Shown here: one piece after another, positions 18,336 to 53,134 of the stretch
How the letters are laid out: the number at the start of each line of letters is the position of its first letter
Numbering within the stretch: position 1 is the first letter of the stretch
Source: Escherichia phage AV124
Sequence record: OR352954
Length of the DNA stretch: 64,000 bases
Strand: one strand, 5' to 3'
Made by a program: the position numbers and the translations under genes
The notes under the pieces: model-generated
Told to the model about the DNA's origin: nothing
Seen by the model: the letters and a program-made list of their open reading frames with translations, nothing else
Database searches by the model: none

Positions 18336-18344
18336 GGGGAAAGT

Positions 18345-20657: not shown

Positions 20658-20664
20658 GTTGTAA

Positions 20665-20684: not shown

Positions 20685-20695
20685 GAGGAGAGAAA

Positions 20696-22349: not shown

Positions 22350-22609
22350 ATCTGAAGAATTCCACCTTCACCATTTATGGTAAGGATAACTGCTCACACT
22401 GCGTCCGTGCTAAGGAGTTTGCCATTGCAAACGGGATCGAGTATATCTACCTTACGCTAGGGAAGAATTATACCAAGGAAGAGCTGGTGGAGCAATGTGC
22501 CCCGGTTATTCCGCGCACCGTCCCGCAGATTTTCCGTGAGACGGACTCCTCTACGGAGTACATTGGGGGCGCTGACGAGTTCATTGCGTTTGTAAAAGCA
22601 AACAAATAA
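22346..22609 (+). CDS. glutaredoxin/NrdH-like redoxin
   Basis: CSHC CxxC motif near N-terminus; TTG start with AGGAG RBS. Confidence 0.6.
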   Translation: MNLKNSTFTIYGKDNCSHCVRAKEFAIANGIEYIYLTLGKNYTKEELVEQCAPVIPRTVPQIFRETDSSTEYIGGADEFIAFVKANK

Positions 22610-22620
22610 GAGGGTTTGTC

Positions 22621-25169: not shown

Positions 25170-25310
25170 ATGAGTAAGAAAGCACTGCGTAAGGCATATA
25201 CCAAGGAACTGGCTCTGGAACTGCGTGGCAAAAAGCCGAAGAATAAGCGTTATTCTGATGAAGAACTTCAGCAACTTGCAGCAGACGCTGCCGCTCGCGG
25301 GGGTCACTAA
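25170..25310 (+). CDS. small basic protein
   Basis: 46-aa ORF not in track; abuts nrdG stop; TAATG overlap with next gene. Confidence 0.3.
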   Translation: MSKKALRKAYTKELALELRGKKPKNKRYSDEELQQLAADAAARGGH

Positions 25311-25690
25311 TGCCAAAAAAGGCCGCAGTTGTAACCACGGACTTACGACCTTCTCTGGCAAAAGAGTTTGTCTCTCTGGTGTGGGACCGTCTGATCGGAG
25401 ATTTTGCTACCGGATTACAGATACAGGTTGAAAGCCTCCAGAATATGGTGAAGGGAGAGAAAGACGTTTATTTCGCCAAGGAAATCAAGGAGAAAAAAGA
25501 ACGACTTCGTAAAACTCTCTCTACAGAGGTTCAACAGAAAGTGTTTGATAAATTGGTCTGCCAACTGGCAGAGGCTTTGACAGAAGAAGAGCTGAGATAC
25601 GCGATCTTCCAAGAGAAGATTACGATCAAGATTCATGGGGTAGCCTCCCAGCTCGAAGCGGCTTTTGAAGAGGCGGTGGGAGAGGCCTAA
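25310..25690 (+). CDS. hypothetical protein
   Basis: ORF. Confidence 0.45.
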   Translation: MPKKAAVVTTDLRPSLAKEFVSLVWDRLIGDFATGLQIQVESLQNMVKGEKDVYFAKEIKEKKERLRKTLSTEVQQKVFDKLVCQLAEALTEEELRYAIFQEKITIKIHGVASQLEAAFEEAVGEA

Positions 25691-25708
25691 CCTGAAAAAG
25701 GAGGTCTT

Positions 25709-26263
25709 TTGAAACTTACGCTGGAACAACTCAACAAAATCTTTCCGAATGGCGCGAAGGCTGGTAGAAATGCCAAGTTTATCGGTCCTTTGAACGACTT
25801 GTTTGAGAAGGGCGGTATTAACACTGTCAATCGCATTGCCGGATTCCTTTCCCAAATCGGGGTGGAGTCCGCAGAGTTCCTGTATACCAGAGAGCTTGGC
25901 AACAATGCCTACTTTGATAAGTATGATACCGGACCAATTGCAAAGCGACTTGGCAATACACCAGAAAAGGATGGTGACGGAGCTAAGTACAAGGGACGTG
26001 GTCTGATCCAAGTCACCGGGCTTGCAAACTACAAAGCTTGTGGTAAAGCCTTAGGGTTGGATCTCGTCAATCACCCTGAATTACTTGAACAGCCGAAATA
26101 TGCAGTTGACAGCGCTGGTTGGTACTGGAACATGAGAAACATCAACGCCGCTTGCGATGCTGATGATATCACCAAAATCACCAAGCTGGTAAACGGCGGG
26201 ACTAACCACCTCGCAGAAAGAACTGCATACTACAAAAAGGCAAAATCTGTTCTAACCTCTTAA
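25709..26263 (+). CDS. glycoside hydrolase family 19 (chitinase-like) endolysin
   Basis: IAGFLSQIGVES and YKGRGLIQVTGLANY...AGWYWN resemble GH19 core; TTG start. Confidence 0.55.
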   Translation: MKLTLEQLNKIFPNGAKAGRNAKFIGPLNDLFEKGGINTVNRIAGFLSQIGVESAEFLYTRELGNNAYFDKYDTGPIAKRLGNTPEKDGDGAKYKGRGLIQVTGLANYKACGKALGLDLVNHPELLEQPKYAVDSAGWYWNMRNINAACDADDITKITKLVNGGTNHLAERTAYYKKAKSVLTS

Positions 26264-26273
26264 GGAGAACCAC

Positions 26274-27062
26274 ATGGGAAGAAGCAAAGAGGCTCGTGCA
26301 ACCAAACTCAGCGTTCGCCAGCAACAACGTGCTGAGAGACAAGCCAAGCACCACCCTAAATTCGATGAGGAAAGGAATAGCGCTCCACCGCTGACTCCTC
26401 TGAATGACAAGCAGCAAGATTACCTTCACAAGTTGCAAACTTGCAATATTGTTATCGCAAAAGGTATCTTCGGTACAGGTAAAACTTACCTAGCATCGGC
26501 CTACGCTGCTGATCTGCTCCGTAAGAATGAACTCGACAAGATCATTGTCGCTCGTCCTTATGTGCAGACGGGTAAAACCTCCGGCTTCAAACCGGGAACA
26601 TCGTTGGAAAAACTCTTCCCGTATGTTCGTAACATGTTAGACACCATCCGTAAACGTATGGGCGACGGTGCCTATTACAATGCGCTTAAAGATGGTCTGA
26701 ATGGGCGTATTGAAGTTCAGGAATTGGAAAGCATCCGTGGTCGTTCATTCGATGAAAGAAGCTATCTCCTGATCGACGAAGCCCAGCAGAGTACCCCAGA
26801 GGAAATGTTGAGTATCATCACACGTATCTCTGACAACTGTACACTCGTAGTTATGGGGGATGCCTCTCAGAAAGATATCCACGGCATCTCCGGTCTGGAG
26901 TGGGTGGAAGATTTCCTGAGCCGGAACGGGATCGCGGGTGTGGGTATTGTAAACTTCGACAACCCAGATGATGACATCGTCCGTGGTGGTATGGTTCGTG
27001 ACATTGCCAAGGCGTTAATCGCCGACCGTGCAGAAGGACGCTATACTCCACTGGCTTCGTAA
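26274..27062 (+). CDS. phoH: PhoH-like ATPase
   Basis: Walker A GIFGTGKTYLA; colinear PhoH-like layout. Confidence 0.8.
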   Translation: MGRSKEARATKLSVRQQQRAERQAKHHPKFDEERNSAPPLTPLNDKQQDYLHKLQTCNIVIAKGIFGTGKTYLASAYAADLLRKNELDKIIVARPYVQTGKTSGFKPGTSLEKLFPYVRNMLDTIRKRMGDGAYYNALKDGLNGRIEVQELESIRGRSFDERSYLLIDEAQQSTPEEMLSIITRISDNCTLVVMGDASQKDIHGISGLEWVEDFLSRNGIAGVGIVNFDNPDDDIVRGGMVRDIAKALIADRAEGRYTPLAS

Positions 27063-27071
27063 CGGAGGATT

Positions 27072-27710
27072 ATGGCTTATTATACAGGCGTGGGGTCAAG
27101 GGAGGCCCCTCCTGAGGTTATCAGCATCATGGAAGATGCTGGTTTCCGCCTTGCAAGGTGCGGATTCACCTTGAGAAGTGGAAAAGCAGGTGGCGCAGAT
27201 GAAGCATTCCAAGTCGGAATGCAAAAATATTACGAATCTCTTGACAATGGGAAGCAAGAAGAGTATCGTACACATTTGGCGGAGATCTATATCCCCTGGG
27301 ATGGATTTGCATCTGACAATGACAATCTCTGGGATTTCTGGGATTATCCTTTAGATTATCTTGATTATCTGATTCCCGACCAAAAGGTTGTACGTGAGGC
27401 ACTGGTTGAGGAGATTCATCCTAATTTTGAAGCTCTTAAAAGAAAAAGAGGAGCTTTTGCGCTCCATTCTCGTAATGTGCATCAAGTCTTGGGGGCCAAT
27501 ATCCTCGATCCACGTCCCTCTGCATTTTGTTTGTACTATGCCAAAGAAGATAGGAACGGAAATCCTAAGGGAGGTACTGCAACCGCAGTTAATTTAGCCA
27601 GAAAGTACGGAGTTCGGGTTCTTAACCTGAACACACCCGATAAACTAGCCTTGTTGGAGAGGTTCTTAAGGTCCTTGGAGGAAAAACGTGGCATCCAGAT
27701 TTCGCGATAA
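27072..27710 (+). CDS. DprA/Smf-like Rossmann-fold protein
   Basis: TGVGSR...SGKAGGADEAF...HSRNVHQVLG...GGTATAVNLARKYGVRV parallels DprA motifs. Confidence 0.45.
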   Translation: MAYYTGVGSREAPPEVISIMEDAGFRLARCGFTLRSGKAGGADEAFQVGMQKYYESLDNGKQEEYRTHLAEIYIPWDGFASDNDNLWDFWDYPLDYLDYLIPDQKVVREALVEEIHPNFEALKRKRGAFALHSRNVHQVLGANILDPRPSAFCLYYAKEDRNGNPKGGTATAVNLARKYGVRVLNLNTPDKLALLERFLRSLEEKRGIQISR

Positions 27711-27999
27711 GCTTAATAATTCTTATTGTCTCGTTAAAGTGGATGGACAGGGCTGGTCAGTTGGTAAAATCGGTAACAAAGTGATTTTCATTACTTACAA
27801 GGATGGTGGGATGAGAAACATTTGTAATACGGATGATACTGATTTATTCAGATACTTCCTGGAATCCATTGAGTACCAAAGTAAGCGAGAGTTATTCGTT
27901 GGTGACAAGGTGAACATTGACAAGTTCGGGCCGTACTATGTGGTAGATATTGGTCACCGTGAGAAAGACGGAAGTATTAAGTACCTTATAGCTCGATAG
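27688..27999 (+). CDS. hypothetical protein
   Basis: ORF. Confidence 0.4.
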   Translation: MASRFRDKLNNSYCLVKVDGQGWSVGKIGNKVIFITYKDGGMRNICNTDDTDLFRYFLESIEYQSKRELFVGDKVNIDKFGPYYVVDIGHREKDGSIKYLIAR

Positions 28000-28006
28000 G
28001 AGGAGT

Positions 28007-28501
28007 ATGACAGTTAGTATTCATGGGATTCTTTCCCATCGGAGACTGATGGAACTGAAGAATTGTAGAGTCGTCGAGCCTGAATTTTTCGAGTCCGAGG
28101 TGACAAAGTATTACAATCTCTATCTGAAGGTTGTGGCTGAGTCACTTTATAAAATGAATGACGGGTTCTTCACCCGAATGATTTATAGCCGTCCCGCTGC
28201 CGAGCGGGATGCCTCTTGGATGTTCCCGGATCGTCGTGACCTGCTGGAGCATTTGATTTACCTGGATGGGAAATCTCAGTACGTGAGTTTGACCAAAGAA
28301 GAGCTTAACCACTTTACGCTGTTGCATCAGGCAGCAGTAGCCTCAGAACGCGCCAAAAGGGTTCTTCTGTGCTTTAAGTACAGCGATCAAGTCCTTGTGG
28401 ATGATGATTCAGGGTTCAATATAGACTGGTTGTTACGGAATGCATACACATTACGACAACTGATTGTAGACGCGAATGGGGAGACACAAGATGCAGAATA
28501 A
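28007..28501 (+). CDS. hypothetical protein
   Basis: ORF with GGAGGAG RBS. Confidence 0.45.
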   Translation: MTVSIHGILSHRRLMELKNCRVVEPEFFESEVTKYYNLYLKVVAESLYKMNDGFFTRMIYSRPAAERDASWMFPDRRDLLEHLIYLDGKSQYVSLTKEELNHFTLLHQAAVASERAKRVLLCFKYSDQVLVDDDSGFNIDWLLRNAYTLRQLIVDANGETQDAE

Positions 28502-29408
28502 CGACAAAAAGAATTACTTTGGTTTCGGTGGGGGTTTTGGTGGGGAAGGTTCTTTCTGTTACCCAATGCCATCCCATGAGCATGTAATCTACATCCACGA
28601 TTTGGATTATATGGAAGATCACTTTAATAAATTACAACAAATTCGCCAAGCCAATCCCGACGATATGGTGCGTGTGATCATCAATACCTATGGTGGTCGT
28701 GTTGATATTGCAATGGCTTATGTGAGCGCGATGCGTGAGAGTCAAGCAACCGTGGTGACCCATGCAGAGGGGCAGGTGTGTTCTGCTGGGACAATCTTGT
28801 GGTTGGCTTGCAAAGAACGCACTGTAGCCCCGATGACGGAATTCATGTTCCACAACTATCAGGGAGGGGCATATGGAGACGGGGCCAATATCTATACCCA
28901 GGTGCTGTTCTACAAACAGCATTTCGATCGTTTAATCGATTATTTCTACAAGGGTGTTTTGACTGATGGGGAGATCAATACAATCAAGGGTGGTGGGCAG
29001 GTATGGCTGGATGAAGTGGAGATTACTAAAAGAACCCGTGCAGTAATCCTGGATGATAAAAATATCGAAAGGATGAAGTCAGGTAAAAATCCTATCGTAA
29101 ACCCCACTGGAAAACAGGCGGAGAAGGTTGCGGAGGAGAGTGTTGTTGGGACTGACGCTGAGAAATCAATTTGCTTGAAAGTGCATGTTGATGGGGAGGT
29201 TTTCTCTTTTGATGTAAGGACTCTAAAAGCCTCGGATTTCGATTCCTTTAATATTGACGAGATACAGAGTATTCTGTCACAGGTTGGTGCCTTGGCCCAA
29301 GGTGAGGAAGAACCTTTGGAGATTACCTCTCGTGATCGTAAGGCACTTATCGAAGCTATGCTTACAGCAGCTCAAGTAATAGTTGATACATACGGAGAAG
29401 ACGCATAA
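28491..29408 (+). CDS. ClpP-like (S14/S49) serine peptidase
   Basis: INTYGGRVDIAMA, GQVCSAG (Ser), MFHNY (His) in ClpP-like order. Confidence 0.5.
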   Translation: MQNNDKKNYFGFGGGFGGEGSFCYPMPSHEHVIYIHDLDYMEDHFNKLQQIRQANPDDMVRVIINTYGGRVDIAMAYVSAMRESQATVVTHAEGQVCSAGTILWLACKERTVAPMTEFMFHNYQGGAYGDGANIYTQVLFYKQHFDRLIDYFYKGVLTDGEINTIKGGGQVWLDEVEITKRTRAVILDDKNIERMKSGKNPIVNPTGKQAEKVAEESVVGTDAEKSICLKVHVDGEVFSFDVRTLKASDFDSFNIDEIQSILSQVGALAQGEEEPLEITSRDRKALIEAMLTAAQVIVDTYGEDA

Positions 29409-30091
29409 TGAGTGCTCCCCTGAAGAAAAAGGGGGAGCGTAGGGATTATGACGTCTATGAGACTCCTGAATGGGCCGTACAGGCCCTTTTGGATGTTATC
29501 CCTATCAACCCATCATGGACATACCTAGAGCCTTGTAGAGCGTCTGGGAGGTTCTATAATCACATGCCTCTCGGTTCAGCTTGGGGTGAAATTCGTGAAG
29601 GTGTAGATTATCTCAGTACCGATTATCCAAATCATGTTGATTGCATCATCACTAATCCTCCATATTCGTTGGCCCAAGAGTTTGTGACAAAAGCTCTTGA
29701 CGATGCCGATGTTGTGATTATGCTTTTGCGGTTAGGATTCCTTGAGAGCATGAAACGCTGGGAATGGTGGCAAGAGAATCCTATCACCAGTTTGATGGTG
29801 TTGTCTCAAAGACCATCGTTTACTGAAGATGGTAAAACAGATGGAAGTGGCTACGCTTACTTTGTTTGGGATAGAAAGAACAGGCTGAATCTTAAGCCAT
29901 TTTATTTTTTGGAGGGACAAGACGATGAGTGCCGCAAGCAAGATGCGAGGGATCGCAGAAATCGCAAACGCAGCAATCCCGCCCGAGATGAACCAGTTGT
30001 ACGACAACATGGTGGAGGGGATTCACCAATGTGCCAAGAAGGGACTTTTGGGGATGGGGATGGTGATAGATCTGCCGGATCACCTGCTTGA
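29408..30091 (+). CDS. N6-adenine DNA methyltransferase (C-terminal boundary uncertain)
   Basis: Motif I LEPCRASGRF, motif IV IITNPPYS; low-complexity Arg/Asp/Gly tail overlaps next ORF. Confidence 0.55.
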   Translation: MSAPLKKKGERRDYDVYETPEWAVQALLDVIPINPSWTYLEPCRASGRFYNHMPLGSAWGEIREGVDYLSTDYPNHVDCIITNPPYSLAQEFVTKALDDADVVIMLLRLGFLESMKRWEWWQENPITSLMVLSQRPSFTEDGKTDGSGYAYFVWDRKNRLNLKPFYFLEGQDDECRKQDARDRRNRKRSNPARDEPVVRQHGGGDSPMCQEGTFGDGDGDRSAGSPA

Positions 30092-30203
30092 TTATTTGCC
30101 TCATATTATTGCTGATCTTCGTGGTGGAGGTTTCGAGGTTGATGTCGTAGAAGTTGAACCCTCTATGCAAGGCATTAGAGCACGATTGTATATTACATGG
30201 TAA
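29925..30203 (+). CDS. hypothetical protein
   Basis: ORF ends immediately before strong terminator; overlaps MTase frame by ~167 nt. Confidence 0.45.
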   Translation: MSAASKMRGIAEIANAAIPPEMNQLYDNMVEGIHQCAKKGLLGMGMVIDLPDHLLDYLPHIIADLRGGGFEVDVVEVEPSMQGIRARLYITW

Positions 30204-30230
30204 ACCTGCTTCGGCAGGTTTTTTTTTTTC
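30203..30230 (+). terminator. rho-independent terminator
   Basis: aacctgc-ttcg-gcaggtt hairpin followed by T10. Confidence 0.7.
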
Positions 30231-30240
30231 GTTTTTTCAC

Positions 30241-30269
30241 TTGACTCCCTGCAAAGCTTCAATTATGCT
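30241..30269 (+). promoter_or_regulatory. sigma70-type promoter (TTGACT-N17-TATGCT)
   Basis: Hexamers directly after terminator, upstream of GAGGAG RBS. Confidence 0.45.
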
Positions 30270-42029: not shown

Positions 42030-43855
42030 CGCCAAATCTCCTGAAGCGGGAGGATACAATCACCACCCCTGCGTGAAAGGTTGCACATCCCATTAACACA
42101 CATAATATGAAGGGTCTCCCCGATATGTCGATAAAACACCATTTCATAAACACATTGCCGTAACGTGTCGATGCCATAAACATTACGGTGCGAAGCACTT
42201 TGCCAAAGGCAAAAACCTCCGGTGCTATAAATATATCGCCTTGGGCGATTAGCCAGAGGCTAACCCGTACACGGGTAAATATATCGCGTAAACAGGCCCC
42301 TGTTTTCCCCGTATAACCACCCCTTCCCCCCGTGGGGAAATCAAAACATACCCCCTGCCGAAAATATCACTTGCCGAAAAATATCATGGCTTGGTCCTTG
42401 GGTAAAAAATATTGTATTCGCACCATCTGCGGTGTTAGACGGACAGCTCCGGGCGTCAACTATCTTTACGGATCTTTACAAAATATCATGGGCAAGGTCG
42501 ATCCGGTTCCCGGTTCCTCGGGGCCTCTTCAGGCATGATAGTTACTTGCCGAAACTAATAATAATTGGGTGTGTCAGATAGCAAGCTTATGGTTTGCCAG
42601 CTTAGAGCACGATTTGCTATTGACTTGTTTATATTTATATGAATTACACCATTTAACATAAAACACGTTATACGCACTGACCAACAACGCATAGCAGACT
42701 AATAATGCCCCAATGTTACCAGTGTGACGCATAGGACAGCCGCTTCAGGTCATTACATGGTGTGACTGTTACTGTGGTGATAGTTTCATATGTGATTATT
42801 CATGTTTTAGGGTTGTTTTGTGAATGAGACGACGAATGAGAATCATTATTATTTCGATTTCGAATTCAATTTCGAAATGAGAATCATTCCGCAAATATAA
42901 ATATTTTGTAAATTTATAAATAAAAGCTTGACGAGGGAAGAGAATCGTGTTTAGCAATACATACTCTTTGAGCATCATTATCATTTGCGACTAATTCCCA
43001 TAAACCCTTGCTACGCAAGGGATTGATAGATATTTTCGATAATAAAAACACTTGACACTTCAGATAAAATCATGCTCAAAAACAAGCCTTTTCTCATAAG
43101 ATACGATCATCATTCTAATGGTTTGTCAACCATTAAACACGAATTAATTTGATTAAACTGCTAATTGTTTACAGGGTTTACTATCATCAGCGACACAATA
43201 ACACAATGCCCTTCGGGTTGTTTTCGCCACGGAAAACAATGTCCAGATTGACCAAAGGGGTTTTGTGAATCCCCTTTATCTGGACACAATAACACTAGGG
43301 CGATCAACGATAGTTGATCGGTGTTATCGTGGCGATGTGATAAAGTTTCATTGCTAATCATTACAGATGTAATGATAATATACTGTGATAATTTCGTCCT
43401 TGATCGTAGCGTCTACGAGCCACGATAACGCGAACGAGAATGCGATTTGTTCGCATTTGAGTTACCCTAGTGTTATTGTGTCGCTCGCTCCGCTCGCGCC
43501 ACTCCCCACGATTCGCGAACGAGAAATTTTATTGACAGAAAATGATTTCTATGCTCATAAAAAGCCAGTTCACACAATGAGTTAGATGAGGAAAGTTATC
43601 ATTATAGTGATTTATGCTCATATTCACTTCCAGTGCATAGAAATTCATGATTTATTCAGTTAATAACATGCGTTATTAATTAGGTGGGGTTGTGGGGTGA
43701 AAAGCCAGGACCGACACACAATTAAACGCAATATAAAGCGTTTTGAGCGTGGTTATCGGTTACCCTCATCATGGTATGTCTTGTGTTAGATCTCAATTAT
43801 GCACTTTTTTGCATAGCGGCGGGGCCGTGGTGTGGGTTGTTTATGGTGTGGATCT
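42030..43855. other. ~1.9-kb non-coding, palindrome- and repeat-rich region (candidate origin / regulatory region)
   Basis: No convincing ORF; numerous direct repeats, palindromes and nested inverted repeats. Confidence 0.5.
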
Positions 43856-43857
43856 GC

Positions 43858-43885
43858 AAAGAGAAAAGCCAGGTAAAAACCTGGC
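43858..43885 (-). terminator. rho-independent terminator for leftward block
   Basis: gccagg-taaaaa-cctggc hairpin; U tract on minus strand. Confidence 0.55.
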
Positions 43886-44142
43886 CTTTGTGTGATTGTC
43901 TTATGACTGGCTAGCCATATTGTTTTAGATAGTTTACAGCGGAAATTATTGCTTGTGCTCGGCTGTACTCTTCGCCGTTCACACGATAGCGCCGCGCGCC
44001 TTTATGGCACTGGGTGATCATAACCTGGATTATTCCATCCATAACATAGAATGCTTTACTTACGAATAAAATCATCTGATACTTTGCAACCGTGATCCGT
44101 GGCGTATGTTATCGCGTCATCAATTTTTAACATGTCACAACC

Positions 44143-44355
44143 TCATTCATTGATTAGTTTAAATTCCGCTTCAGGGTGATAAAGATCAGCCATATAGCGC
44201 ATTTTGTAATAGAAAGATACTTCCACAATGTGAGGCGCTTCGATTTCTATTTGTGTGATGAGAACGCTACCCGGCTTAAATCCTGGGGCGATGTCCGGTA
44301 ATTCGATAATCATTCCGCCTTTTAAATCTTTCGCTTTTACAGTTCCCATGATCAT
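44143..44355 (-). CDS. hypothetical protein
   Basis: ORF. Confidence 0.45.
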   Translation of the reverse strand: MIMGTVKAKDLKGGMIIELPDIAPGFKPGSVLITQIEIEAPHIVEVSFYYKMRYMADLYHPEAEFKLINE

Positions 44356-44585
44356 TAGCCTTTTTTACGTTTCATTACTTTGATCGCTTTTATGCCTTTT
44401 TGTTCGAAAAATTCCGGGCTTCGCAATTGTGCGGCACTGCTACGGCTTTTTACCTTAGTAGACAATACACCATAATAGCGCCCGTCATCATACTGACCAA
44501 TAAAATAAAAATCGTTTACGCCATATTTTTCATCCCCTGCTTTCTGGATGATTTCGGATAACTTGTCAATACTAATATTAATCAT
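44355..44585 (-). CDS. hypothetical protein
   Basis: ORF. Confidence 0.45.
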   Translation of the reverse strand: MINISIDKLSEIIQKAGDEKYGVNDFYFIGQYDDGRYYGVLSTKVKSRSSAAQLRSPEFFEQKGIKAIKVMKRKKG

Positions 44586-44633
44586 AATTGCTTTACCTCA
44601 AAGGATAGCGGGGCGGCTAGCGCCCCGGTTTGA

Positions 44634-44963
44634 TTATTTGTTAAGCTCTTTATATTCAGCGATCCAGCGGGTAAAAATCTCATACTGTTTTTGTGCTGCT
44701 TTCGCTGTTTTGTGAGAGATAACAGTTATATACCAGCAATTTCCTAAAACATAACCGGATGAATGATAAACCCACGGATATTTCGGATCGATCTCTTTCA
44801 GTTCTTTTTGACGTTCTGGGGACTCGCTCCAGACGTGAGAGACAAAATCAACGGCAGTATAACGGGGAACTTCAAGCGGGACACGCTGACCGAAAGCGTC
44901 AAACTTAAAATTGTGCGACTCTAAATGCTTGTCTAAAAAGGTGAAAAATTCTGATTTTGTCAT
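44634..44963 (-). CDS. hypothetical protein
   Basis: ORF. Confidence 0.45.
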   Translation of the reverse strand: MTKSEFFTFLDKHLESHNFKFDAFGQRVPLEVPRYTAVDFVSHVWSESPERQKELKEIDPKYPWVYHSSGYVLGNCWYITVISHKTAKAAQKQYEIFTRWIAEYKELNK

Positions 44964-45210
44964 TTCCGTTTACCTCGTCAAGTTGTTTTCGTTTGTTTGC
45001 CCTACGAGATAAATAATAATATAAGCGGGGATCGCTGTAAATAGCTCTTTACGTATCTTTACATTACTGTCGTTGTTGAGAGTAATTCTCATTACCGGAA
45101 TAGCGGGCACCTCCGGTGGCTTTCCTCCGGTATCCATCGTTGCCGCTTCAAAAAAGAATAGCAAAAACCAGGACCGAAAGCAAGCCCTAGAATTGTAAAG
45201 ATTTTGCCTA

Positions 45211-45678
45211 TCATACCAGGCCGGATCGCTTCGCCTTTGCAATGTCTGAATATAATTTCCTGAAGTATGCCGGGCCTCGCTCGTTTACTCTCACATATTC
45301 ATCACGCGCCGCCAACTGGTGATCGTCGGGTAATAACCCATGATAACCACTGCTAACAACGGCAATCCGCTTTTTGTTGCAGTCATAGTAAACATATGAA
45401 CCATCGGCTAGATAAATTGTGCAGTTCTGCCGGATGTAGGGTATCAAATACGCGTTGCCCTGGTGCCGGATTTTGTAAAGCGCCATTTGTCCATTGTAGA
45501 TCCGGCGGACGTGATAAGGGTCATTGATTGCCTGGTGAATGTTTTCCTTCCAGGCCTGGCGAGCGTTGCCAACATTACGGATCAGCGCTTCCACCTCTGG
45601 GATCACGACGTTAGCACGGGCGGCGGCTTTTGCCTGGTCTGATAATTCATCGTAATAAAACATTCGTACACTAATCAT
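45211..45678 (-). CDS. hypothetical protein
   Basis: ORF. Confidence 0.45.
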   Translation of the reverse strand: MISVRMFYYDELSDQAKAAARANVVIPEVEALIRNVGNARQAWKENIHQAINDPYHVRRIYNGQMALYKIRHQGNAYLIPYIRQNCTIYLADGSYVYYDCNKKRIAVVSSGYHGLLPDDHQLAARDEYVRVNERGPAYFRKLYSDIAKAKRSGLV

Positions 45679-45824
45679 TTTTTAATCCCCATGAAAGGAA
45701 AGCAAGCCAGATCGGCGGGGCGCAAGTGGTTAACACGTCGCCAGCCTTTTGGCGTTTCAACAAAAACGCGGTTTTCAATCCAGTGATAAATTTTACCAGA
45801 TCGCATATTGAGAAAACGTATCAT
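45675..45824 (-). CDS. small protein
   Basis: 49-aa ORF not in track; ATGA overlap with downstream gene. Confidence 0.3.
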   Translation of the reverse strand: MIRFLNMRSGKIYHWIENRVFVETPKGWRRVNHLRPADLACFPFMGIKK

Positions 45825-45873
45825 TTGCGTTTATCCGTAAAAGTTGCCCCGGATCGCCGGGGCCTGGTGTACA

Positions 45874-46644
45874 TTATGCCACAATGGCGGGACGGTTTAC
45901 AACGGTTGTTTTTACGTCCTGATAGGTATCGTGTTTTTTAACGGTAGCCTTAAACTTAACAACCGCGCCAACCGGGCCGAACTCTTTTGATCCGATGTAT
46001 GTTACTAGGTCATCGCCCTGGCGGACTTTGATAATATAGTATGATGATTGATTCCATTCATCAATTTTGAGATAAGAGAAAACGATCTCACCCTCAAAAA
46101 CCAGGCGATCGCCAATGTTACCGATCCAATTGCTTTTTAAATCCTCGGCTTTACGCTCGGCGCGTTTCTGGTCACGGGCTGCAATGTAACCATGATCAAG
46201 AGCATAACCCAAACACGCCGCGCTTAGTGCTTCCATTACCGGGCCGTTATCTGGCTTGTTTGCCATATCAGCAAAAAATAAAACATAGGATTCTTTAACA
46301 TCGGCAAACGTTTTACCGCAATGCTTGCCAAAAGGAAAGCGCCCCGCTTCGATTTCTTCGATCCGGGCGGTATCGACGATCGACAATTTACCGCGACGTT
46401 GCCCCAGCTCAAAATCTGCGTAGCCTGCAAAAACTTGTTCAAAGTTTTCTGTGTTGGCGATCCGCGCGGTTACTCGATCAAAATATTCCTTTGCTTTAGT
46501 TTCTGCTTTTTGGGGATCGGTTGAAAGATTGCAGATGTAAGAATCTGCAAAAACGCCACCGCCAAAGTTACGGCGGCGCAATGTATACATTGCATTCAGC
46601 TTGCCGGAGTCGATGTAATAGGTAACGGTGATTTTAGTAGTCAT
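45874..46644 (-). CDS. hypothetical protein
   Basis: 256-aa ORF. Confidence 0.5.
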   Translation of the reverse strand: MTTKITVTYYIDSGKLNAMYTLRRRNFGGGVFADSYICNLSTDPQKAETKAKEYFDRVTARIANTENFEQVFAGYADFELGQRRGKLSIVDTARIEEIEAGRFPFGKHCGKTFADVKESYVLFFADMANKPDNGPVMEALSAACLGYALDHGYIAARDQKRAERKAEDLKSNWIGNIGDRLVFEGEIVFSYLKIDEWNQSSYYIIKVRQGDDLVTYIGSKEFGPVGAVVKFKATVKKHDTYQDVKTTVVNRPAIVA

Positions 46645-46751
46645 TCTGTTTTACCTCGATTTGTGGGCCGTCGCATCATTGCCGCCCTATACATTAAATA
46701 TAATAAAAGTCGCTCACGTTTGCAAGCGACTTTTTAGATTAATTTTCTCAA

Positions 46752-47075
46752 TTAGTTAGCACGGAAAACATCGTTTACAATAGCAGTTGTAAACATCCAG
46801 ACCAGATCCGGGGTGGTTATCGGCAGGCTGTCAGCCTGTTTTATTGTTACTCCGCTTCTTTCAAGAGTGTAGGCGATAAAATGACGGTTTTCAAGTTTTC
46901 CACTATGTGATTGAATAGATTTTTCAGTACGGATCAGGACGGTTAAACGGTCCGCTTGTTCGCTGTCATTCTCATGACAAAACACTAACATGGTTTTTTC
47001 TCCCTGGCGATTAAAGTCACAATTAACATTATCGTTAACATTTTCCAGAAAGAAAAATTTGTTTGCCTTTTCCAT
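46752..47075 (-). CDS. hypothetical protein
   Basis: ORF. Confidence 0.45.
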   Translation of the reverse strand: MEKANKFFFLENVNDNVNCDFNRQGEKTMLVFCHENDSEQADRLTVLIRTEKSIQSHSGKLENRHFIAYTLERSGVTIKQADSLPITTPDLVWMFTTAIVNDVFRAN

Positions 47076-47146
47076 ACTATTTTACCTTTTTGTTAGTGGG
47101 CCAATCTTGCCCGGTCCAAGTAATATAGCCTAACCGGGCCGGGTGA

Positions 47147-47443
47147 TCAATGATTATTTTCTTTTTCGGCGTACATCTGGATCAAGCTGGCTGCGTCGAT
47201 ATTGTCAACAAAAAACGAGGATACCGCCACCGCCGGATCACCGTCTACTGGTTCACCATCCGGCATAGGTTCGACTTCTGGCGATGGTATGCACGCCGGA
47301 TTAATCCAGCGCCCATAGCGCTGATAGTCAACGGCGACGATCTCGCAAGTCAATTGATCATCATAGCTTTCTACTACATAATCGCCACACTGTTTTAAGG
47401 CTAGCGCACTATAAAAACACACACCCGCGAATACTTCGAACAT
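47147..47443 (-). CDS. hypothetical protein
   Basis: ORF. Confidence 0.45.
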   Translation of the reverse strand: MFEVFAGVCFYSALALKQCGDYVVESYDDQLTCEIVAVDYQRYGRWINPACIPSPEVEPMPDGEPVDGDPAVAVSSFFVDNIDAASLIQMYAEKENNH

Positions 47444-47453
47444 GTTAACCGCC

Positions 47454-47696
47454 TTATTTTTTCAGAGTAATGATCGGGCGCTTGTCGCCCTCTTTGACGC
47501 CAGGATCTAACGTATCGCAGATCCCCACTTGCTCACCCTTTTTCAAAGTGTAGCTGTTTTCGTACACCTCGCAAGCTTGTTCGTCATCAAAAACTTTCTT
47601 TACAGTCCAATCACATTGTAATGACATTGAACTAACAGAAATGTGACAAGCTAATAAAATAAATCCGAACATGGTAGCCGCCTTAATGGGGCGCAA
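47454..47696 (-). CDS. small lipoprotein-like protein
   Basis: Signal peptide with lipobox-like LLAC. Confidence 0.45.
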   Translation of the reverse strand: MRPIKAATMFGFILLACHISVSSMSLQCDWTVKKVFDDEQACEVYENSYTLKKGEQVGICDTLDPGVKEGDKRPIITLKK

Positions 47697-47710
47697 GGCC
47701 CCGCTATTGA

Positions 47711-48034
47711 TTATTTGTTGATCTGGTTTGTCTGATTATAGATCCCATATTGAACACGGGACACGGTAACAGATTGAGGGAGTAAGCAACGAACACGATC
47801 CGCGCGGTTGTCATATTTTTTAATATGCGCCGGAGTATTGTTGCGGGTAAACTTAACACGCAAACGTAATTTATTTGGATCGCGGTCATCGATGCCGGTT
47901 ACCACACCGAAAGCGATTTGGCCATAGTTATGATAAACCATTTTACCCAGAAATTTTGATTCAAGATCGGCGATGTTAGATTTTACGTTTTGCATGTTGT
48001 TTACCTTTTTCAGAGTGGCGGTGAATTCCGCCAC
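47711..48034 (-). CDS. hypothetical protein
   Basis: ORF. Confidence 0.45.
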   Translation of the reverse strand: MAEFTATLKKVNNMQNVKSNIADLESKFLGKMVYHNYGQIAFGVVTGIDDRDPNKLRLRVKFTRNNTPAHIKKYDNRADRVRCLLPQSVTVSRVQYGIYNQTNQINK

Positions 48035-48295
48035 TGATTAAAGGATAGCATAACGCCGACAGGATGCAACAAATATTTTTAGAATTGTTGAGAACTGTTC
48101 TCATATGCAGTGATATGCATAGAAAATCGCTGTTATGCAATTAGTTTCAACTGGTTACTAAATTTGTGGCGTTTTGAGCGTGGCGCGGCTATCCGATACC
48201 CTCTAAAACGCCCTCAAATCGATTCTAAGCGCTTCAATCTGTAGCCCTGGTAAGTGCATTGCTACGCTGAGATCTCGCTAAATTCACTTTTTTGC

Positions 48296-48323
48296 ATAAA
48301 AAAGCCGGGGATAATTCCCCGGC
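48296..48323 (-). terminator. rho-independent terminator / intergenic hairpin
   Basis: gccgggg-ataatt-ccccggc hairpin, U tract on minus strand; near-identical hairpin at ~49299. Confidence 0.5.
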
Positions 48324-48327
48324 CTGG

Positions 48328-48543
48328 TTACTCACCTGTTACGGCGTATCGCTGCAAATTACGTTTACGATCGGCAAGGCGTTTATTTAACTTCGGGTCG
48401 TACTGGTCCGGCGACCATTGAACCGCGATCCGTTCCGGCTTATGCCGTTTATTGTTACGCTCTCGCCGCTCGTTAGTCTCACCAAAAGCAAGGCGATCGC
48501 GCTGGCTTGTCATCTTCTCAAAGTTGCGGCTTTTTGCTGTCAT
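48328..48543 (-). CDS. small basic protein
   Basis: Arg/Lys-rich ORF. Confidence 0.45.
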   Translation of the reverse strand: MTAKSRNFEKMTSQRDRLAFGETNERRERNNKRHKPERIAVQWSPDQYDPKLNKRLADRKRNLQRYAVTGE

Positions 48544-48880
48544 GTTTTGATCCTCTGTGGTTGTATGTTTCCGCTCGCCATTCCGCGATCTGTTTTTTGC
48601 GATACTCGATCAGCTCTTCGATGTAGTCGAAAGATCCCTCTTTATGTACCAGGACCACGCCGCCCCGGTGTTTAATCTCACAAATCAGGCCGCTACCCTC
48701 CAAATCATTTAACGGCCCGGATCGCCTGGTGTGGTACTCCTCCCCCTGGAAGCAATATTCTATATAATGAAACATTGTTTTAACCCTGTACCAGTAGTAA
48801 AACCACTTCAGAACACGCCAGATCCTGACGTGAATTTTTGCATAATAACAAAATATGAGTAGAATCAAAAATTCTTTCAT
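48518..48880 (-). CDS. hypothetical protein with hydrophobic N-terminus
   Basis: Start at internal Met (MKEFLI) 1 nt after upstream stop; track start 48952 overlaps upstream gene. Confidence 0.4.
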   Translation of the reverse strand: MKEFLILLIFCYYAKIHVRIWRVLKWFYYWYRVKTMFHYIEYCFQGEEYHTRRSGPLNDLEGSGLICEIKHRGGVVLVHKEGSFDYIEELIEYRKKQIAEWRAETYNHRGSKHDSKKPQL

Positions 48881-48881
48881 A

Positions 48882-49277
48882 TTACGCCGCGCTGTTTTTA
48901 AATGGCTTATCCCATGATCCGAACTGTAGATCGATATAGTGACCAACATCAAAATAATCTGTCATCACGTCGCTATTGTTATAATTATCAGTGTCTAGCG
49001 CTTCAATGATTTTTTCAAGCGTTGCGGTAAACTCTTTATCACTCGAATAAGTATGAGCGTTATAATGGTTAACACTGATATATGTAAAGCCGTCCGGGTA
49101 TCCTTCTTTAACTGATTTATGATCCATTTTAGACACAAGATCAAACGGCGCGGATCGGATAGTGCAAACAATAGTTGAATAGTGACGGATCGCAAATGTT
49201 GCTTTCCAACCTTTGGGCAATACAGCTTTTACCGCTTCGACAATTTTCGCTTTCTTCTCTTTATTCATGTAGGCCAT
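48882..49277 (-). CDS. hypothetical protein
   Basis: ORF. Confidence 0.45.
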   Translation of the reverse strand: MAYMNKEKKAKIVEAVKAVLPKGWKATFAIRHYSTIVCTIRSAPFDLVSKMDHKSVKEGYPDGFTYISVNHYNAHTYSSDKEFTATLEKIIEALDTDNYNNSDVMTDYFDVGHYIDLQFGSWDKPFKNSAA

Positions 49278-49336
49278 TTTGTTTACCTTTTAGGTTATGC
49301 CGGGGACAATTCCCCGGCTTTAATCAGTATAGCGGT

Positions 49337-49849
49337 TTAAAGAATCTTTGCAACGTCTTTATAAGACCATGCAAAAAGAGAATTTTGCTTACCTGGTGCA
49401 ACGTCCGCCAGACGTCCAGCAAATCGGGCGCGGTTATGGGGGAACTCAAAGACTACCACGCGCCCGGATATCATTTCCACGCGATCACCGTTTTTCAGAA
49501 GTTTAATCCGGTCAATCAGTGCTTTATGCTCTTTTTTGTGTTTAACATGTTGACGACAAGCGGCGCGCCAATTAACGGAGAATTCATCTTGTTGCGTGGA
49601 TCGCTTAAGGAATTTTTCAGGACAATTGTAATAACACGGGCCGCAGGATTCATCCATATCTTTATAAAAAACCATACCATCTTTGCGGGAAAGGATTGTA
49701 ACACGAATGTAAAGACTTTCATCTCTCGCCCTTGCAAGCTGATAAACTTCATTGCCTACAATAGACGTTTCGATCACGCGGTTATCAGTCAGATAATTTT
49801 CAACAAATTTTTTGTTATTAAGATTAGAATAAATGCTAGTCCAGCCCAT
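49337..49849 (-). CDS. hypothetical protein
   Basis: ORF. Confidence 0.5.
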   Translation of the reverse strand: MGWTSIYSNLNNKKFVENYLTDNRVIETSIVGNEVYQLARARDESLYIRVTILSRKDGMVFYKDMDESCGPCYYNCPEKFLKRSTQQDEFSVNWRAACRQHVKHKKEHKALIDRIKLLKNGDRVEMISGRVVVFEFPHNRARFAGRLADVAPGKQNSLFAWSYKDVAKIL

Positions 49850-49917
49850 TTTATTTACCTCGTTTAGTGTTTAATTTGTTGGTGCCTGGTAATTATAGGC
49901 CCTTTCCGGGCCTGGTG

Positions 49918-50703
49918 TCAAATGATACGTTCGAATTTATCGAATCTTTTTGCGGATCTGCCGTGAACGTCGATCACGACGTTGGCGCGTTTACCATCGC
50001 ATAAGCCGCAATCTAAGCAGCTAATGTTGTGAGTGGTATTAACGCAAGTGATCTCGCCCTCCAGGCGGCGCATATTGTGAGTTTTCACGCGGAAAGTTTT
50101 ATAACCCTTGCGCCATGCTGTGATCGCTTGTTTTTCCGTATCGGCTGAGATCTGGCAAATGGTAGCGATACGATGATCAAAATTCTTATGGTGGATCTGG
50201 TGAGTGTACCCCGTATTGCCTTGCGTATGGTTGACCATGTTTTGCCATACCTCAAAAGGGACCGCCGCCGGATCGCCGTAGGAACCTAAACGGATATAAC
50301 GCCCCGCAAAATGTACCAGATCGCGAGAATCAAGATCTTTATAATTGCCTTTTTTGTAAGACTTCCAGACTGACAGCGGGGCCTGGTGTAATGTCACATA
50401 ACAAGCGCCGTTTAAGCTGGTACGATGGGGACACATACCGCAAACAGATGAATCAAGTTTTTTAGCGCTCGCTTCCAGTGGGCTAACATCCTCACGCATG
50501 ATCCAGGTTTGAACCATATCGCCAGTCTTATCGTTAGCGGTTGACATTGTAGCAATGACCACGATCGGGGCCTTATCCAGGACTGACGGGCCTTTATATA
50601 ATACATAACCCTTTTTTGCTGTGGATTTTTTACCCGGTACACTATGCACGATCTCGGATTCAGAGTTGACAACCAGACCATTATTAAGTTTAAACGTAGA
50701 CAT
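49918..50703 (-). CDS. hypothetical Cys-containing protein
   Basis: 261-aa ORF with CGMCPH and CLDCGLCDG motifs. Confidence 0.5.
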   Translation of the reverse strand: MSTFKLNNGLVVNSESEIVHSVPGKKSTAKKGYVLYKGPSVLDKAPIVVIATMSTANDKTGDMVQTWIMREDVSPLEASAKKLDSSVCGMCPHRTSLNGACYVTLHQAPLSVWKSYKKGNYKDLDSRDLVHFAGRYIRLGSYGDPAAVPFEVWQNMVNHTQGNTGYTHQIHHKNFDHRIATICQISADTEKQAITAWRKGYKTFRVKTHNMRRLEGEITCVNTTHNISCLDCGLCDGKRANVVIDVHGRSAKRFDKFERII

Positions 50704-50806
50704 TGCTTTTTACCTCGATTTATCGCGGCCCTTGCCGCCTGAGAAAACACTTTAGCAAGGGCGCTAACTGAAAGCAAGCGCCCAGGGTAAAATATTTTAT
50801 TTAGCT

Positions 50807-50964
50807 AGTGATAAGGTTTTTCCGTGGTTGATCCCAGGGATAACCCATTGCCCGGCGCCATCTTTAACAGGCTGACGTAAACGCGCCGCCGTGGTTACCT
50901 TGCTGTTAACATTACGGGCAAAAGCGCGGGCCTGGTCACGGGTAGTAAAAGAAATATTTTTCAT
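50807..50964 (-). CDS. small protein (first gene of leftward block)
   Basis: 52-aa ORF not in track; GAGG RBS; promoter-like TTGACG-N17-TAATAT upstream on minus strand. Confidence 0.3.
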
Positions 50965-51193
50965 GTTGTAGCCTCTTCAGTAGATGTAATTTTGTTTTGC
51001 CCTGGATTTTGGAGATCCTCACCTTTCCGGGCCAGATTGAATCCTCATCGCTTGCGCTTTACTCCACGCCCCACTATTTCAACCGGGGGCCTTGGATTCA
51101 CCCCGCCCCGGTGAGATGAATATTAAGTGATAGCGATCCCCGCGTCAATCCCCTGGATGAAAATAAATTAAAAATATTTTTGTTCGTGTGGGC

Positions 51194-51224
51194 TTGCGCC
51201 CCGGCCTGGTTAGTGTACTATATA
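51194..51224 (+). promoter_or_regulatory. promoter A (TTGCGC-N16-TACTAT) with GC hairpin in spacer
   Basis: First of three similar promoters; precedes small ORF 51253. Confidence 0.45.
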
Positions 51225-51252
51225 AGGACTCCCACAAATAAAGGTAAACGAA

Positions 51253-51438
51253 ATGGAAAACGCAAAAGTGATAACGAGTGAAACAATGGTTACCCTTTCC
51301 ACCTGGGAGACGGAAAGCGCAGCGCCCCAGGTTAGGATCGTGCCTTTACCCTTCGCGTTGAAAATGTATAATGCAGGATTTACCAGGGTGAGAATTGTTG
51401 CGGAAAATGGGGAAGTGATCGCGGACTCCTGGGAGTAA
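51253..51438 (+). CDS. small protein
   Basis: 61-aa ORF between promoters A and B. Confidence 0.4.
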   Translation: MENAKVITSETMVTLSTWETESAAPQVRIVPLPFALKMYNAGFTRVRIVAENGEVIADSWE

Positions 51439-51458
51439 AAAATATTTTATCACGGGGC

Positions 51459-51487
51459 TTGCAAACGGCCCCGACCTGGGTTATATT
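51459..51487 (+). promoter_or_regulatory. promoter B (TTGCAA-N17-TATATT)
   Basis: Same architecture as A; downstream ~120 nt lack an ORF. Confidence 0.45.
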
Positions 51488-51619
51488 TATCAGACAGGAG
51501 AAGAGACGCCACCCCCACGGCGGAAAGGCGGGGCTAACATACCAGGCGCGGCGATCTGGTTGGAAGGTGGATCGCCGGTAGCTCGCCTTAAGCCTGTTTG
51601 TAAAGAATTGTAAAGACGA

Positions 51620-51649
51620 TTGCAACCGGGGGTAGGATATACTATATTA
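51620..51649 (+). promoter_or_regulatory. promoter C (TTGCAA-N18-TATATT)
   Basis: Third member of the tandem set. Confidence 0.4.
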
Positions 51650-51818
51650 TACACATAGCGGGAACATTGAAACCGGAGTACAAAACACCGGGGGTGCCTA
51701 TCATTCAGCAAATGAGAATGATTACCATTCAAATAACTAAATAAGAATGCTTCTCATTCAACAAAAAATTTAAATATTGACTTCTGATTTTTCGTGTGAG
51801 ATACTGAGCGATACCCCT

Positions 51819-52030
51819 AAAAAATTTTTTCGCGTAAGAAAACAAATACGATCTGGAAATTGAGATCTCGATCGAGAACCGGGCCGAAAAATTTTTTCTA
51901 GAGAGAAAACAATTACGATCTCGATTTTGAAAAACCGATCGAGAACCCGGTTGATACAGAGAAAAATTTTTTGATAGTGAGAGCAAATACGTTTTTGAAA
52001 ACGAAAAGTCGATCGAGAACCCAGAGTTTG
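51819..52030. repeat. three tandem ~70-bp direct repeats (candidate iterons / regulatory array)
   Basis: Each unit has AAAAATTTTTT, AGAAAACAA(A/T)TACG and palindromic TCGATCGAGAACC core; unit starts ~51819, 51887, 51963. Confidence 0.6.
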
Positions 52031-52257
52031 CTACCTGAAAATTTGAGTTATCTTTTTCGCTTATTTGAGATAAATGTCCAATCTTGATGCCAAGATACCT
52101 ATAGCAATCATACACTTGTGCATCATTTTTCGACATAGCTCCCACAAAGGTTTGAGATAATCTACTCCCAAAACTCTTGATTTAAAAATTTGCAGGGAAG
52201 ATGAAATCCGTTTCAAAAACGATTTTGAAAACCATTTCGAATTTTAAAATATCTTTG

Positions 52258-52290
52258 GGATATTAAATATCATACAAATATCCCACAGTT
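52258..52290 (-). terminator. hairpin downstream of leftward gene 52298..53134
   Basis: gggatatt-N15-aatatccc inverted repeat in AT-rich context. Confidence 0.35.
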
Positions 52291-52297
52291 TTGAATC

Positions 52298-53134
52298 TTA
52301 TCTGGGATTGAAAATATCCTTCCATTTAATAATATCATAGGTTGTGCCTGTAGAAATTTCATACATTTTAATCTCATCTGGGGTCGGATTACAAATGTCA
52401 ATGAAAAATGTGCTCAATACAGAAATCAGGAACCGTTCTGTCTTTCCTGGGACTGTGTAAACAATACGCATATCACCGGGAATAGGAGAAATGGCCAAGG
52501 AGGTAGGGCCATTCATAAGTGTAACGGTATTATCAGCAATCTTGATACGACCATCGACACCATACACCAAATCATGGACAGAAGAATAATGTGCAAGCAC
52601 CTCTACTACCGGGTTACCGACAAGGTTCACGAGGTAATCAAGATACAGGTCTCGCCATCCACGATTCTGCATCATGTACCGTATATGGGAACCTCCATCA
52701 AACATCTCGCCCAGTTGCTCTGCGATCCAGGCAACACCATTTGCAATGTCTTCTCTGTTCCAAGTGTTGTCGATATCTAAAATATCCTTGCTGAACTTGT
52801 TCAAACGGCGCATAGCATTGAGTACATACTCACCTCTTTCAACGAAGGCACGTTCAGTGTCTTTTGCATAATCGAGAAGCCCTTCAACCTCTGATCCTGT
52901 GGCGTATTGCTTAAGGTCATCAAGCACACTTTCCACACTGGCCTTGGCCTGATTGAAAGTATACTCATCAGTCTCGTCAGTAGAGAATTCTACACCACCA
53001 AGGGCGTATGTAGCATCATCATAGAGCTTTTTGAGATCATGACGCATATCCGGGAAGTCATAACCAACCTTGTTATGAGGGATAAGTTCAAGAGTGTTTA
53101 AAATAGTAGTCATCGTATATCGTCCTGTAATCAA
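52298..53134 (-). CDS. hypothetical protein
   Basis: 278-aa ORF. Confidence 0.5.
   Translation of the reverse strand: MITGRYTMTTILNTLELIPHNKVGYDFPDMRHDLKKLYDDATYALGGVEFSTDETDEYTFNQAKASVESVLDDLKQYATGSEVEGLLDYAKDTERAFVERGEYVLNAMRRLNKFSKDILDIDNTWNREDIANGVAWIAEQLGEMFDGGSHIRYMMQNRGWRDLYLDYLVNLVGNPVVEVLAHYSSVHDLVYGVDGRIKIADNTVTLMNGPTSLAISPIPGDMRIVYTVPGKTERFLISVLSTFFIDICNPTPDEIKMYEISTGTTYDIIKWKDIFNPR

Follow-up and report, generated by a model that had tools for sequence, protein, structure and literature searches.

Promoter-hairpin cassettes resembling promoter-early stem-loops, within an island dense in GATC and CCWGG sites, in a probable early gene block of an rV5-like phage

A leftward block of small conserved genes

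In the 64,000-nt stretch of Escherichia phage AV124 DNA analyzed here (sequence record OR352954; hereafter the window), a block of small minus-strand genes is separated by intergenic regions in which promoter-like hexamers, GC-rich hairpins and an octamer recur, the latter reading GGCCTGGT on the plus strand and ACCAGGCC on the transcribed strand (Table 1). A preliminary description of this DNA had estimated about 18 co-oriented genes; exactly 18 were counted, and a Pfam match was found in just one of them: the very basic 71-aa product of gene 48328-48543 (minus strand) matched Phage_1_1 (T7 gene 1.1 protein; E 2.7e-7). The proteins are not the orphan open reading frames (ORFans) that they had been called, as 15 of the 18 matched PHROG families at E<1e-33, all of function unknown, and they are thus conserved hypotheticals. 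In annotated relatives every gene of the block is labelled “hypothetical protein”.

The largest protein (261 aa, gene 49918-50703) had 931 homologues at E<1e-5, with homologues at least 50% identical from marine and Pseudomonas sources. It has seven invariant cysteines and a confident structure model (pLDDT 89.6), with a weak resemblance to a radical-SAM-like fold; it is a widely conserved, enzyme-like protein. No protein of the block could be assigned to host takeover or anti-defence, leaving the earlier suggestion of such a module without direct support; an anti-defence role is neither supported nor excluded.

A database comparison of the block showed its DNA to be 93-95% identical to that of Mydovirus phages including KB57, Mydo, KpS8, Ro1 and BIS47, the hosts of these relatives being Klebsiella, Proteus and Raoultella, while PVP-SE1, 4MG, GAP31 and Erwinia phages were more distant, with similarity limited to short stretches. 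Judged by these matches, the phage of the window is a Mydovirus, one of the rV5-like myoviruses (Vequintavirinae). A 514-bp terminal repeat_region in the record of Klebsiella phage DP maps to window positions 42438-42951, suggesting that the block may adjoin the physical genome end, at a distance of ~1 kb as stated for phage DP (one record). The block probably consists of early genes in a hyperplastic region, and would be transcribed leftward by the host sigma-70 RNA polymerase.

Promoter-hairpin cassettes between the genes

The intergenic regions of the block shared a composite anatomy, in which a promoter-like site and a GC-rich stem-loop were combined in variable register. In the perfect sigma-70 promoter, the spacer contained an octamer copy (49909-49916) and the hairpin GGCCC-ggaaa-GGGCC (49897-49913; fold -12.3 kcal/mol), and the stop TGA of the upstream gene lay inside the -35. 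The hairpin next to octamer copy 45861 stood just past a TG-extended promoter-like site, TTGTAA-18-CATAAT (45902-45873). The 48321 element has the look of a textbook terminator, with the core GCCGGGGA/TCCCCGGC (-21.7 kcal/mol, z -3.5; 0 of 200 shuffles as stable). Its hairpin recurred almost unchanged: 19 of 20 bases were the same between 48304-48323 and 49299-49318 (repeat family D20), as the preliminary description had noticed of this pair, and the second copy (-19.1 kcal/mol, z -3.0) lay at a predicted transcript 5' end.

Relative to the promoter hexamers, four registers were found: i) in the spacer (49909); ii) over the -35 (46725 and 50777; a -35 in a hairpin loop was also found on the plus strand at 51459); iii) over the -10 (47122); iv) after the -10 (49299 and 45861). 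The stems (GCCCCGG, GCCGGGGA, GGCCC, GGGCGCT and CGGGGCG) were followed by a T tract at 48321 (T6) and 43868, weakly at 45861 (aacttttac), and not at 49909, 49299 or 44609. Under a simple weight matrix, six of the 12 intergenic regions scored above the 95th percentile of coding-sequence controls (0.6 expected), among them the region with the perfect TTGACA-18-TATAAT. Moreover, 13 of the 25 perfect GC-rich hairpins of the window fell in 40-52 kb (nine of these in 44-52 kb), mostly lacking a T tract, while 37153 and 41954 outside the block have one. The hairpins of the block are thus unlike the usual terminators with T tracts found in other parts of the window, and the block stands apart as a module with an intergenic grammar and a composition of its own, both as had been proposed. 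At the downstream edge, the Shine-Dalgarno sequence GAGGTAAA or AAGGTAAA preceded most start codons, and a ribosome-site segment, TTTACCTCG, was repeated at gene starts (families D8 and D13), in favor of a cassette organization.

Variable gene content at the cassettes

From one relative to another, entire genes appear or disappear at the cassettes. Across nine Mydovirus relatives the gene content of the block varied and the block was mosaic. At junction 45833|45842, just past the 45861 hairpin, three relatives carried an extra 96-aa gene; at junction 49916|49923, on the -35 edge, an extra 89-aa gene was found, and the 49909 promoter cassette was unchanged whether this gene or the 261-aa gene lay upstream. 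A 29-nt segment with Shine-Dalgarno and start (47981-48009) was duplicated, flanking an extra gene on both sides. Further junctions were found at 47444|47451, 45066|45071, 49891 and 50975|51105-51143, and a minority fell within genes (44411|45617, 45726, 47259 and 49012-49202). The anatomy of the cassettes, its statistics and these junction positions are direct observations.

Comparison with promoter-early stem-loops of T4-type phages

Promoter-early stem-loops (PeSLs) were described in the T4-type phages RB49/phi1, PST/T4 and nt-1/KVP40 (PMC2839356, PMC4122927). Their published layout runs from a stop codon through an AT-rich stretch, sigma-70 boxes, a polyG/polyC stem-loop and a Shine-Dalgarno sequence to ATG; the stem-loops fall into five positional subclasses relative to the -35 and -10, and the elements concentrate in ORFan-rich hyperplastic regions, with insertions and deletions at the elements (PMC2839356, PMC4122927).

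The cassettes of the block are likewise intergenic, among small function-unknown genes in a hyperplastic region; in them a sigma-70-type promoter is joined, in varying register, to a G-run/C-run stem-loop; the upstream stop marks their 5' edge, and Shine-Dalgarno and ATG their 3' edge; and close relatives differ by genes inserted, deleted or replaced at these sites. By sequence, five of the features that define PeSLs appear to be present. The differences are that i) these cassettes occur in Vequintavirinae, whereas PeSLs occur in Straboviridae; ii) copies here share 14-29 nt, whereas RB49 copies are conserved over ~100 bp (PMC2839356); iii) a genus-specific word, ACCAGGC, stands beside several cassettes; iv) the block here is an island rich in GATC and CCWGG, in contrast to the PeSL region of RB49; and v) PeSLs are also defined by promoter and terminator activity in reporter assays and by excised mini-circles detected by inverse PCR (PMC2839356), whereas activity of the cassettes here is predicted.

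At the equivalent place in a Phapecoctavirus, which belongs to another subfamily, there was a regular array of TTGACA-17-TAAGAT promoters followed by the hairpin ACRTAGGGCGGCaatggtGCCGC, with conservation between copies longer than 14-29 nt. A transcript-start hairpin, TAGGGCGGCAATGGTGCCGC, followed the -10 of many promoters of this array (24500-30260 of the compared stretch); it recurred in PVP-SE1 (~22370), with diverged versions in the window at 46650-46700 and 50715-50740. The published rV5 genome was annotated with 33 promoters and 20 terminators and no composite elements, and our literature search found no paper describing such cassettes in rV5-like phages.

We therefore favor, with a probability of roughly 60%, the reading that the block, a probable early region that is plastic through recombination, carries an array of PeSL-like cassettes of promoter and hairpin. 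Each cassette would run from the upstream stop through a sigma-70 promoter, a short G/C-run stem-loop and a strong Shine-Dalgarno sequence (GAGGTAAA) to the start codon, with the stem-loop between, over or just after the promoter hexamers. The hairpins would attenuate or terminate read-through, one of them as a full terminator, and would cap transcript ends; each small gene may thereby be an insulated expression unit, and shared cassette segments may act as homology patches for whole-gene swaps between related phages. We infer from these sequence features that the genes are early, that the promoters and terminators are active and that recombination proceeds through the cassettes.

Codon usage in the block departed from that of the remaining genes (AAA 0.77 vs 0.49; AGA+AGG 0.09 vs 0.25; GGC 0.39 vs 0.14), as expected for genes expressed at another time. 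Cowe and Sharp are said to have described, in 1991, time-of-expression classes of codon usage in phage T4; the likeness is that block genes depart from the rest of the genome, and the difference is that codon usage fails to account for the excess of GATC and CCWGG described below.

Several observations weigh against an array of PeSL-like cassettes: i) the other six of the 12 intergenic regions contained no convincing promoter; ii) several hairpins of the block were no more stable than shuffled sequence (z -0.2 to -1.9); iii) cassette copies within the genome shared just those 14-29 nt (families D8, D10, D13 and D20); iv) the two in-gene octamer copies, the 10:2 strand bias of ACCAGGC and the GATC/CCWGG excess lie outside the reach of the cassette model.

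The recurrent octamer and alternative readings

The six plus-strand positions reported earlier for GGCCTGGT (45861, 48321, 49909, 50380, 50929 and 51203) were exact, and a further plus-strand copy was found at 61312. The enrichment held against shuffled controls: nine copies on both strands were present vs 1.34 expected, and none of 100 shuffles reached nine. It was the commonest 8-mer of the block (six copies). All six copies were retained in most of the nine Mydovirus relatives, and one relative had lost two; the word ACCAGGC was absent from the PVP-SE1 (46 kb) and Phapecoctavirus (40 kb) stretches with the same cassette architecture. The octamer is a real, genus-specific, over-represented word.

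The proposed order of stop, ACCAGGCC and hairpin held for three of the six copies and failed for the other three. Copy 45861 stood 5 nt past a stop, with a 7-bp GC stem (-16.9 kcal/mol); copy 48321 overlapped a stop, with a 10-bp stem and T6; copy 49909 was 1 nt past a stop, with a 6-bp stem. In these three cassettes GGCCTGGT supplies the first GGCC of the stem and, flanking it, a single-stranded ACCA. Copies 50380 and 50929 were in-gene (Table 1), and copy 51203 falls between the hexamers of a plus-strand promoter-like site, so that its orientation is opposite to that of transcription; a related spacer, CCCGGCCCGGTTAGG, occurred in the minus-strand promoter 47150-47122. The copies outside the three cassettes are part of a broader surplus of ACCAGGC and CCWGG within the block. 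The octamer is not one uniform termination or processing signal, and the dedicated RNA-processing code once proposed gained no support, with heterogeneous motif contexts and no Rfam family: a scan of the 64-kb window gave no Rfam match at gathering score (and a tRNA scan of the window, no tRNA). We regard the octamer as a part of some cassettes that is specific to the genus, and not as an independent code.

It is plausible, at somewhat less than even odds, that the octamer has no function of its own and is a by-product of block composition (the CCWGG excess and the G/C-run hairpin arms) together with duplication of related cassettes. Under block-trained Markov models its expectation climbed from 0.06-0.10 copies (order 1-2) through 0.38 (order 3) to 1.7 (order 4) and 3.3 (order 5), suggesting that the excess sits largely in shorter sub-words. 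The 1.7-3.3 copies expected at order 4-5 speak for a by-product, as do the CCWGG excess itself (2.5-fold over synonymous expectation in genes; 11 vs 2.0 in non-coding DNA), the GGCC part, always in a stem arm, and longer strings common to cassettes, such as CGGGGCCTGGTGTA, present three times (family D10). However, high-order models absorb part of the signal under test, and a palindromic CCWGG excess predicts neither a strand bias nor a fixed ACCA 5' flank.

Such a bias was present: within the block ACCAGGC occurred ten times on the coding strand and twice on the other (six times on both strands of the remaining 55 kb), and CACCAGG seven times vs none. It favors a reading that we nevertheless consider doubtful, namely that ACCAGGC(C) itself is a specific signal. 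A factor of phage or host origin would recognize it on the transcribed strand or in the corresponding RNA; the word could, for instance, serve a regulator that acts on early promoters or where transcripts start, or determine processing or stability. In-gene ACCAGG also exceeded synonymous expectation (7 vs 1.6-2.4, P about 0.003), the preservation of the six copies in most relatives points the same way, and three intergenic copies began 1-6 nt past a -10-like hexamer (49884, 45862 and 51204). Against such a signal stand the mixed contexts (promoter spacer, terminator stem, hairpin flank, coding sequence and opposite-strand promoter), the two copies lost in one relative, and the absence of the word from PVP-SE1 and the Phapecoctavirus despite the same cassettes; moreover, we know of no factor that recognizes it.

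That the hairpins are ordinary rho-independent terminators, as elsewhere in the genome, fits 48321 and 43868 (GC stem, then T tract) but is quite improbable for the whole set, since most lack a T tract and overlap promoter hexamers, and the clearest outside cases (37153 and 41954) are mixed-sequence stems followed by T tracts.

Three further candidates were not retained. A Chi-like function of GGCCTGGTG was discarded, as it shares just CTGGTG with Chi (GCTGGTGG, which is oriented toward an entering RecBCD) and faces away from the nearest annotated genome end; the exact Chi octamer was not found in the block. Two comparisons with other systems were dropped: a lambda boxB-like reading of GGCCCGGAAAGGGCC, with no boxA partner found, and a REP-like reading of the hairpins, with no repeat family found.

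A compositional island dense in Dam and Dcm sites

The block is the greater part of a compositional island with sharp edges near 43.9 and 52 kb. The impression that it is rich in CG dinucleotides was confirmed: CpG observed/expected was 1.30 in the block vs 0.82 elsewhere, at 44% G+C in both, and the block differed from the rest of the window with a dinucleotide delta* of 184 and a tetranucleotide correlation of 0.17. Codon usage of the block explains most of this CpG excess: 383 CpG were observed, where 363 were expected with the block's own codon usage and 309 with that of the other genes.

GATC and CCWGG are the sites of Dam and Dcm, the two housekeeping DNA methylases of the host. In a permutation that kept protein sequence and codon usage, GATC was the top 4-mer (70 vs 40.8, z 7.5) and CCAGG the top 5-mer (13 vs 3.9), with CCWGG at 22 vs 8.8. 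In a stricter third-base shuffle, which additionally kept dinucleotides at codon junctions, the window block (43858-52000) was compared with 18000-27000 of the PVP-SE1 stretch and 18000-30000 of the Phapecoctavirus stretch: the GATC ratios were 1.51, 1.45 and 1.50 respectively (z 7.3-8.1) and the CCWGG ratios 1.88, 1.78 and 1.87 (z 3.9-5.4), while the GCGC ratio dropped to about 1.2. The two controls rule out codon usage as the cause of the GATC/CCWGG excess. GATC was the top 4-mer in all three blocks, though there is little DNA-level similarity among them, and their signatures were closer to each other (delta* 37, r 0.75) than to their own genomes.

Other causes were also rejected. Host-like composition does not produce the pattern, as E. 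coli genes gave 1.06 for GATC and 1.14 for CCWGG, and the block was just moderately close to E. coli (delta* 100, tetranucleotide r 0.51). It is not a general trait of PeSL regions, RB49 HPR3 giving 0.90 (GATC) and 0.54 (CCWGG), and the other genes of the same phages had ratios of about 1 or less. GATC was enriched in all three reading frames, and CCAGG and CCTGG were both enriched, suggesting a duplex site rather than an RNA or codon-pair effect. The non-coding parts of the block were not enriched in GATC. In relatives, 85.2% of GATC sites were retained vs 76.4% of frame-matched 4-mers (P about 0.007), and site numbers were at equilibrium.

High local density of Dam sites is known from SeqA-binding GATC clusters, as at oriC, and from Dam-regulated phage sites such as P1 pac. 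The block is alike in this density but differs in that its excess extends evenly along 8 kb of coding DNA, with non-coding parts not enriched and no surplus of closely spaced pairs; SeqA-type pairing was rejected, as 23 of 86 GATC spacings were ≤31 nt (27%) vs 28% at random placement. We found no literature report of the GATC/CCWGG excess pattern, and no paper tying PeSLs, GATC or methylation to rV5-like phages.

We suggest tentatively, as possible rather than probable, that selection at the DNA level favors dense GATC and CCWGG in the presumed early blocks of rV5-like and phi92-like phages (Vequintavirinae and Stephanstirmvirinae); the octamer would then be one visible tip of that selection. 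Candidate causes of the excess are that methylation serves to tell parental from progeny DNA, or that repair is biased, as by Vsr at CCWGG; to our knowledge no comparable repair bias exists for GATC. A possible purpose of dense sites is a mark that separates the infecting methylated genome from fast-replicating, under-methylated progeny copies. Such a mark could confine expression of the block genes to parental DNA, or protect the genome end by the terminal repeat.

Table 1. Positions of the block, the island and individual elements in the window
Feature	Position	Strand	Details
Probable early-gene block	43911..50964	-	18 small co-oriented genes, 40-261 aa; ORF map and translations
Compositional island	43858..52000		CpG observed/expected 1.3; GATC 2.8x and CCWGG 3.8x over base composition
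Terminator-like hairpin GCCAGGT-tttt-ACCTGGC with T tract	43868..43885	-	Closes the block; stem consists of two CCWGG sites
Hairpin GCCCCGG-N4-CCGGGGC	45846..45868	-	Octamer copy 45861-45868 is the 5' flank; past stop of gene 45874-46644
Cassette with -35 TTGCAA in 13-bp hairpin loop	46697..46734	-	-10 TATATT just after; z -3.1, score 10.5
Putative promoter TTGATC-17-TATATT	47109..47150	-	-10 in loop of GCCCGGT...ACCGGGC; score 10.0; fold z not significant
Predicted intrinsic terminator after gene 48328-48543	48296..48328	-	Octamer copy 48321-48328; 10-bp stem, T6
Putative promoter TTGCAA-16-TATACT (49353-49326), then hairpin	49299..49353	-	GCCGGGGA-attg-TCCCCGGC at 49299-49318
Perfect sigma-70 promoter sequence TTGACA-18-TATAAT	49892..49921	-	12/12 consensus; position weight matrix score 14.5
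Octamer copy, no hairpin	50380..50387	-	Inside gene 49918-50703, codons CAC-CAG-GCC; no fold
Hairpin GGGCGCT...AGCGCCC	50759..50783	-	TTGCTT -35-like hexamer in loop; weak promoter score 6.5
Octamer copy, no hairpin	50929..50936	-	Inside gene 50797-50964, codons GAC-CAG-GCC; no fold
Hub promoter TTGACG-17-TAATAT	51120..51148	-	Candidate start of leftward block transcription; score 9.7
Promoter-like site TTGCGC-16-TACTAT for gene 51253-51438	51194..51221	+	Octamer copy 51203-51210 in spacer

Non-coding regions in and around the block

Between the hub promoter (51148) and the first gene lies a GC-rich leader of ~150 nt (50965-51143), which varies among relatives: it is deleted in some and elsewhere replaced by a 95-aa ORF annotated “DNA ligase”. 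Beyond the hub, ~860 nt (51440-52300) are without an annotated gene in relatives. This stretch contains two plus-strand TTGCAA-17-TATATT sites and, at 51820-52024, three ~67-bp direct repeats with several GATC in each; a role as replication origin or other regulatory region is possible.

Inside the block, a ~330-nt non-coding region (47996-48330) opens with the 48321 terminator and is conserved across genera, its counterpart in PVP-SE1 lying between gp191 and gp192 (22355-22700 of the compared stretch). A partial copy is found at 43560-43915, and the region is partly repeated in relatives too. Within it a conserved palindrome, TGAGAACAGTTCTCAACAA, precedes a TTGCAT -35-like hexamer by ~35 nt. 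A second region (44983-45187), non-coding or with a tiny ORF only, is 82-88% conserved in Erwinia phages, 4MG, GAP31 and a Phapecoctavirus, and is unannotated there. Elsewhere in the window, 29408-30058 (plus strand) encodes a homologue of PVP-SE1 gp152 (76% identity), a putative amino-methyltransferase with an NPPY motif.

Implications

If PeSL-type cassettes organize the early regions of rV5-like and phi92-like phages, they would be a convergent or widely shared device of large lytic phages, serving the expression and exchange of small accessory genes. This would aid annotation and engineering of therapy-relevant Klebsiella, E. coli and Salmonella phages. The excess of Dam and Dcm sites is the more surprising part: it is specific, was seen in three genera and withstood strict controls. 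With it, a connection of host methylation to the expression of early phage genes becomes open to direct test.

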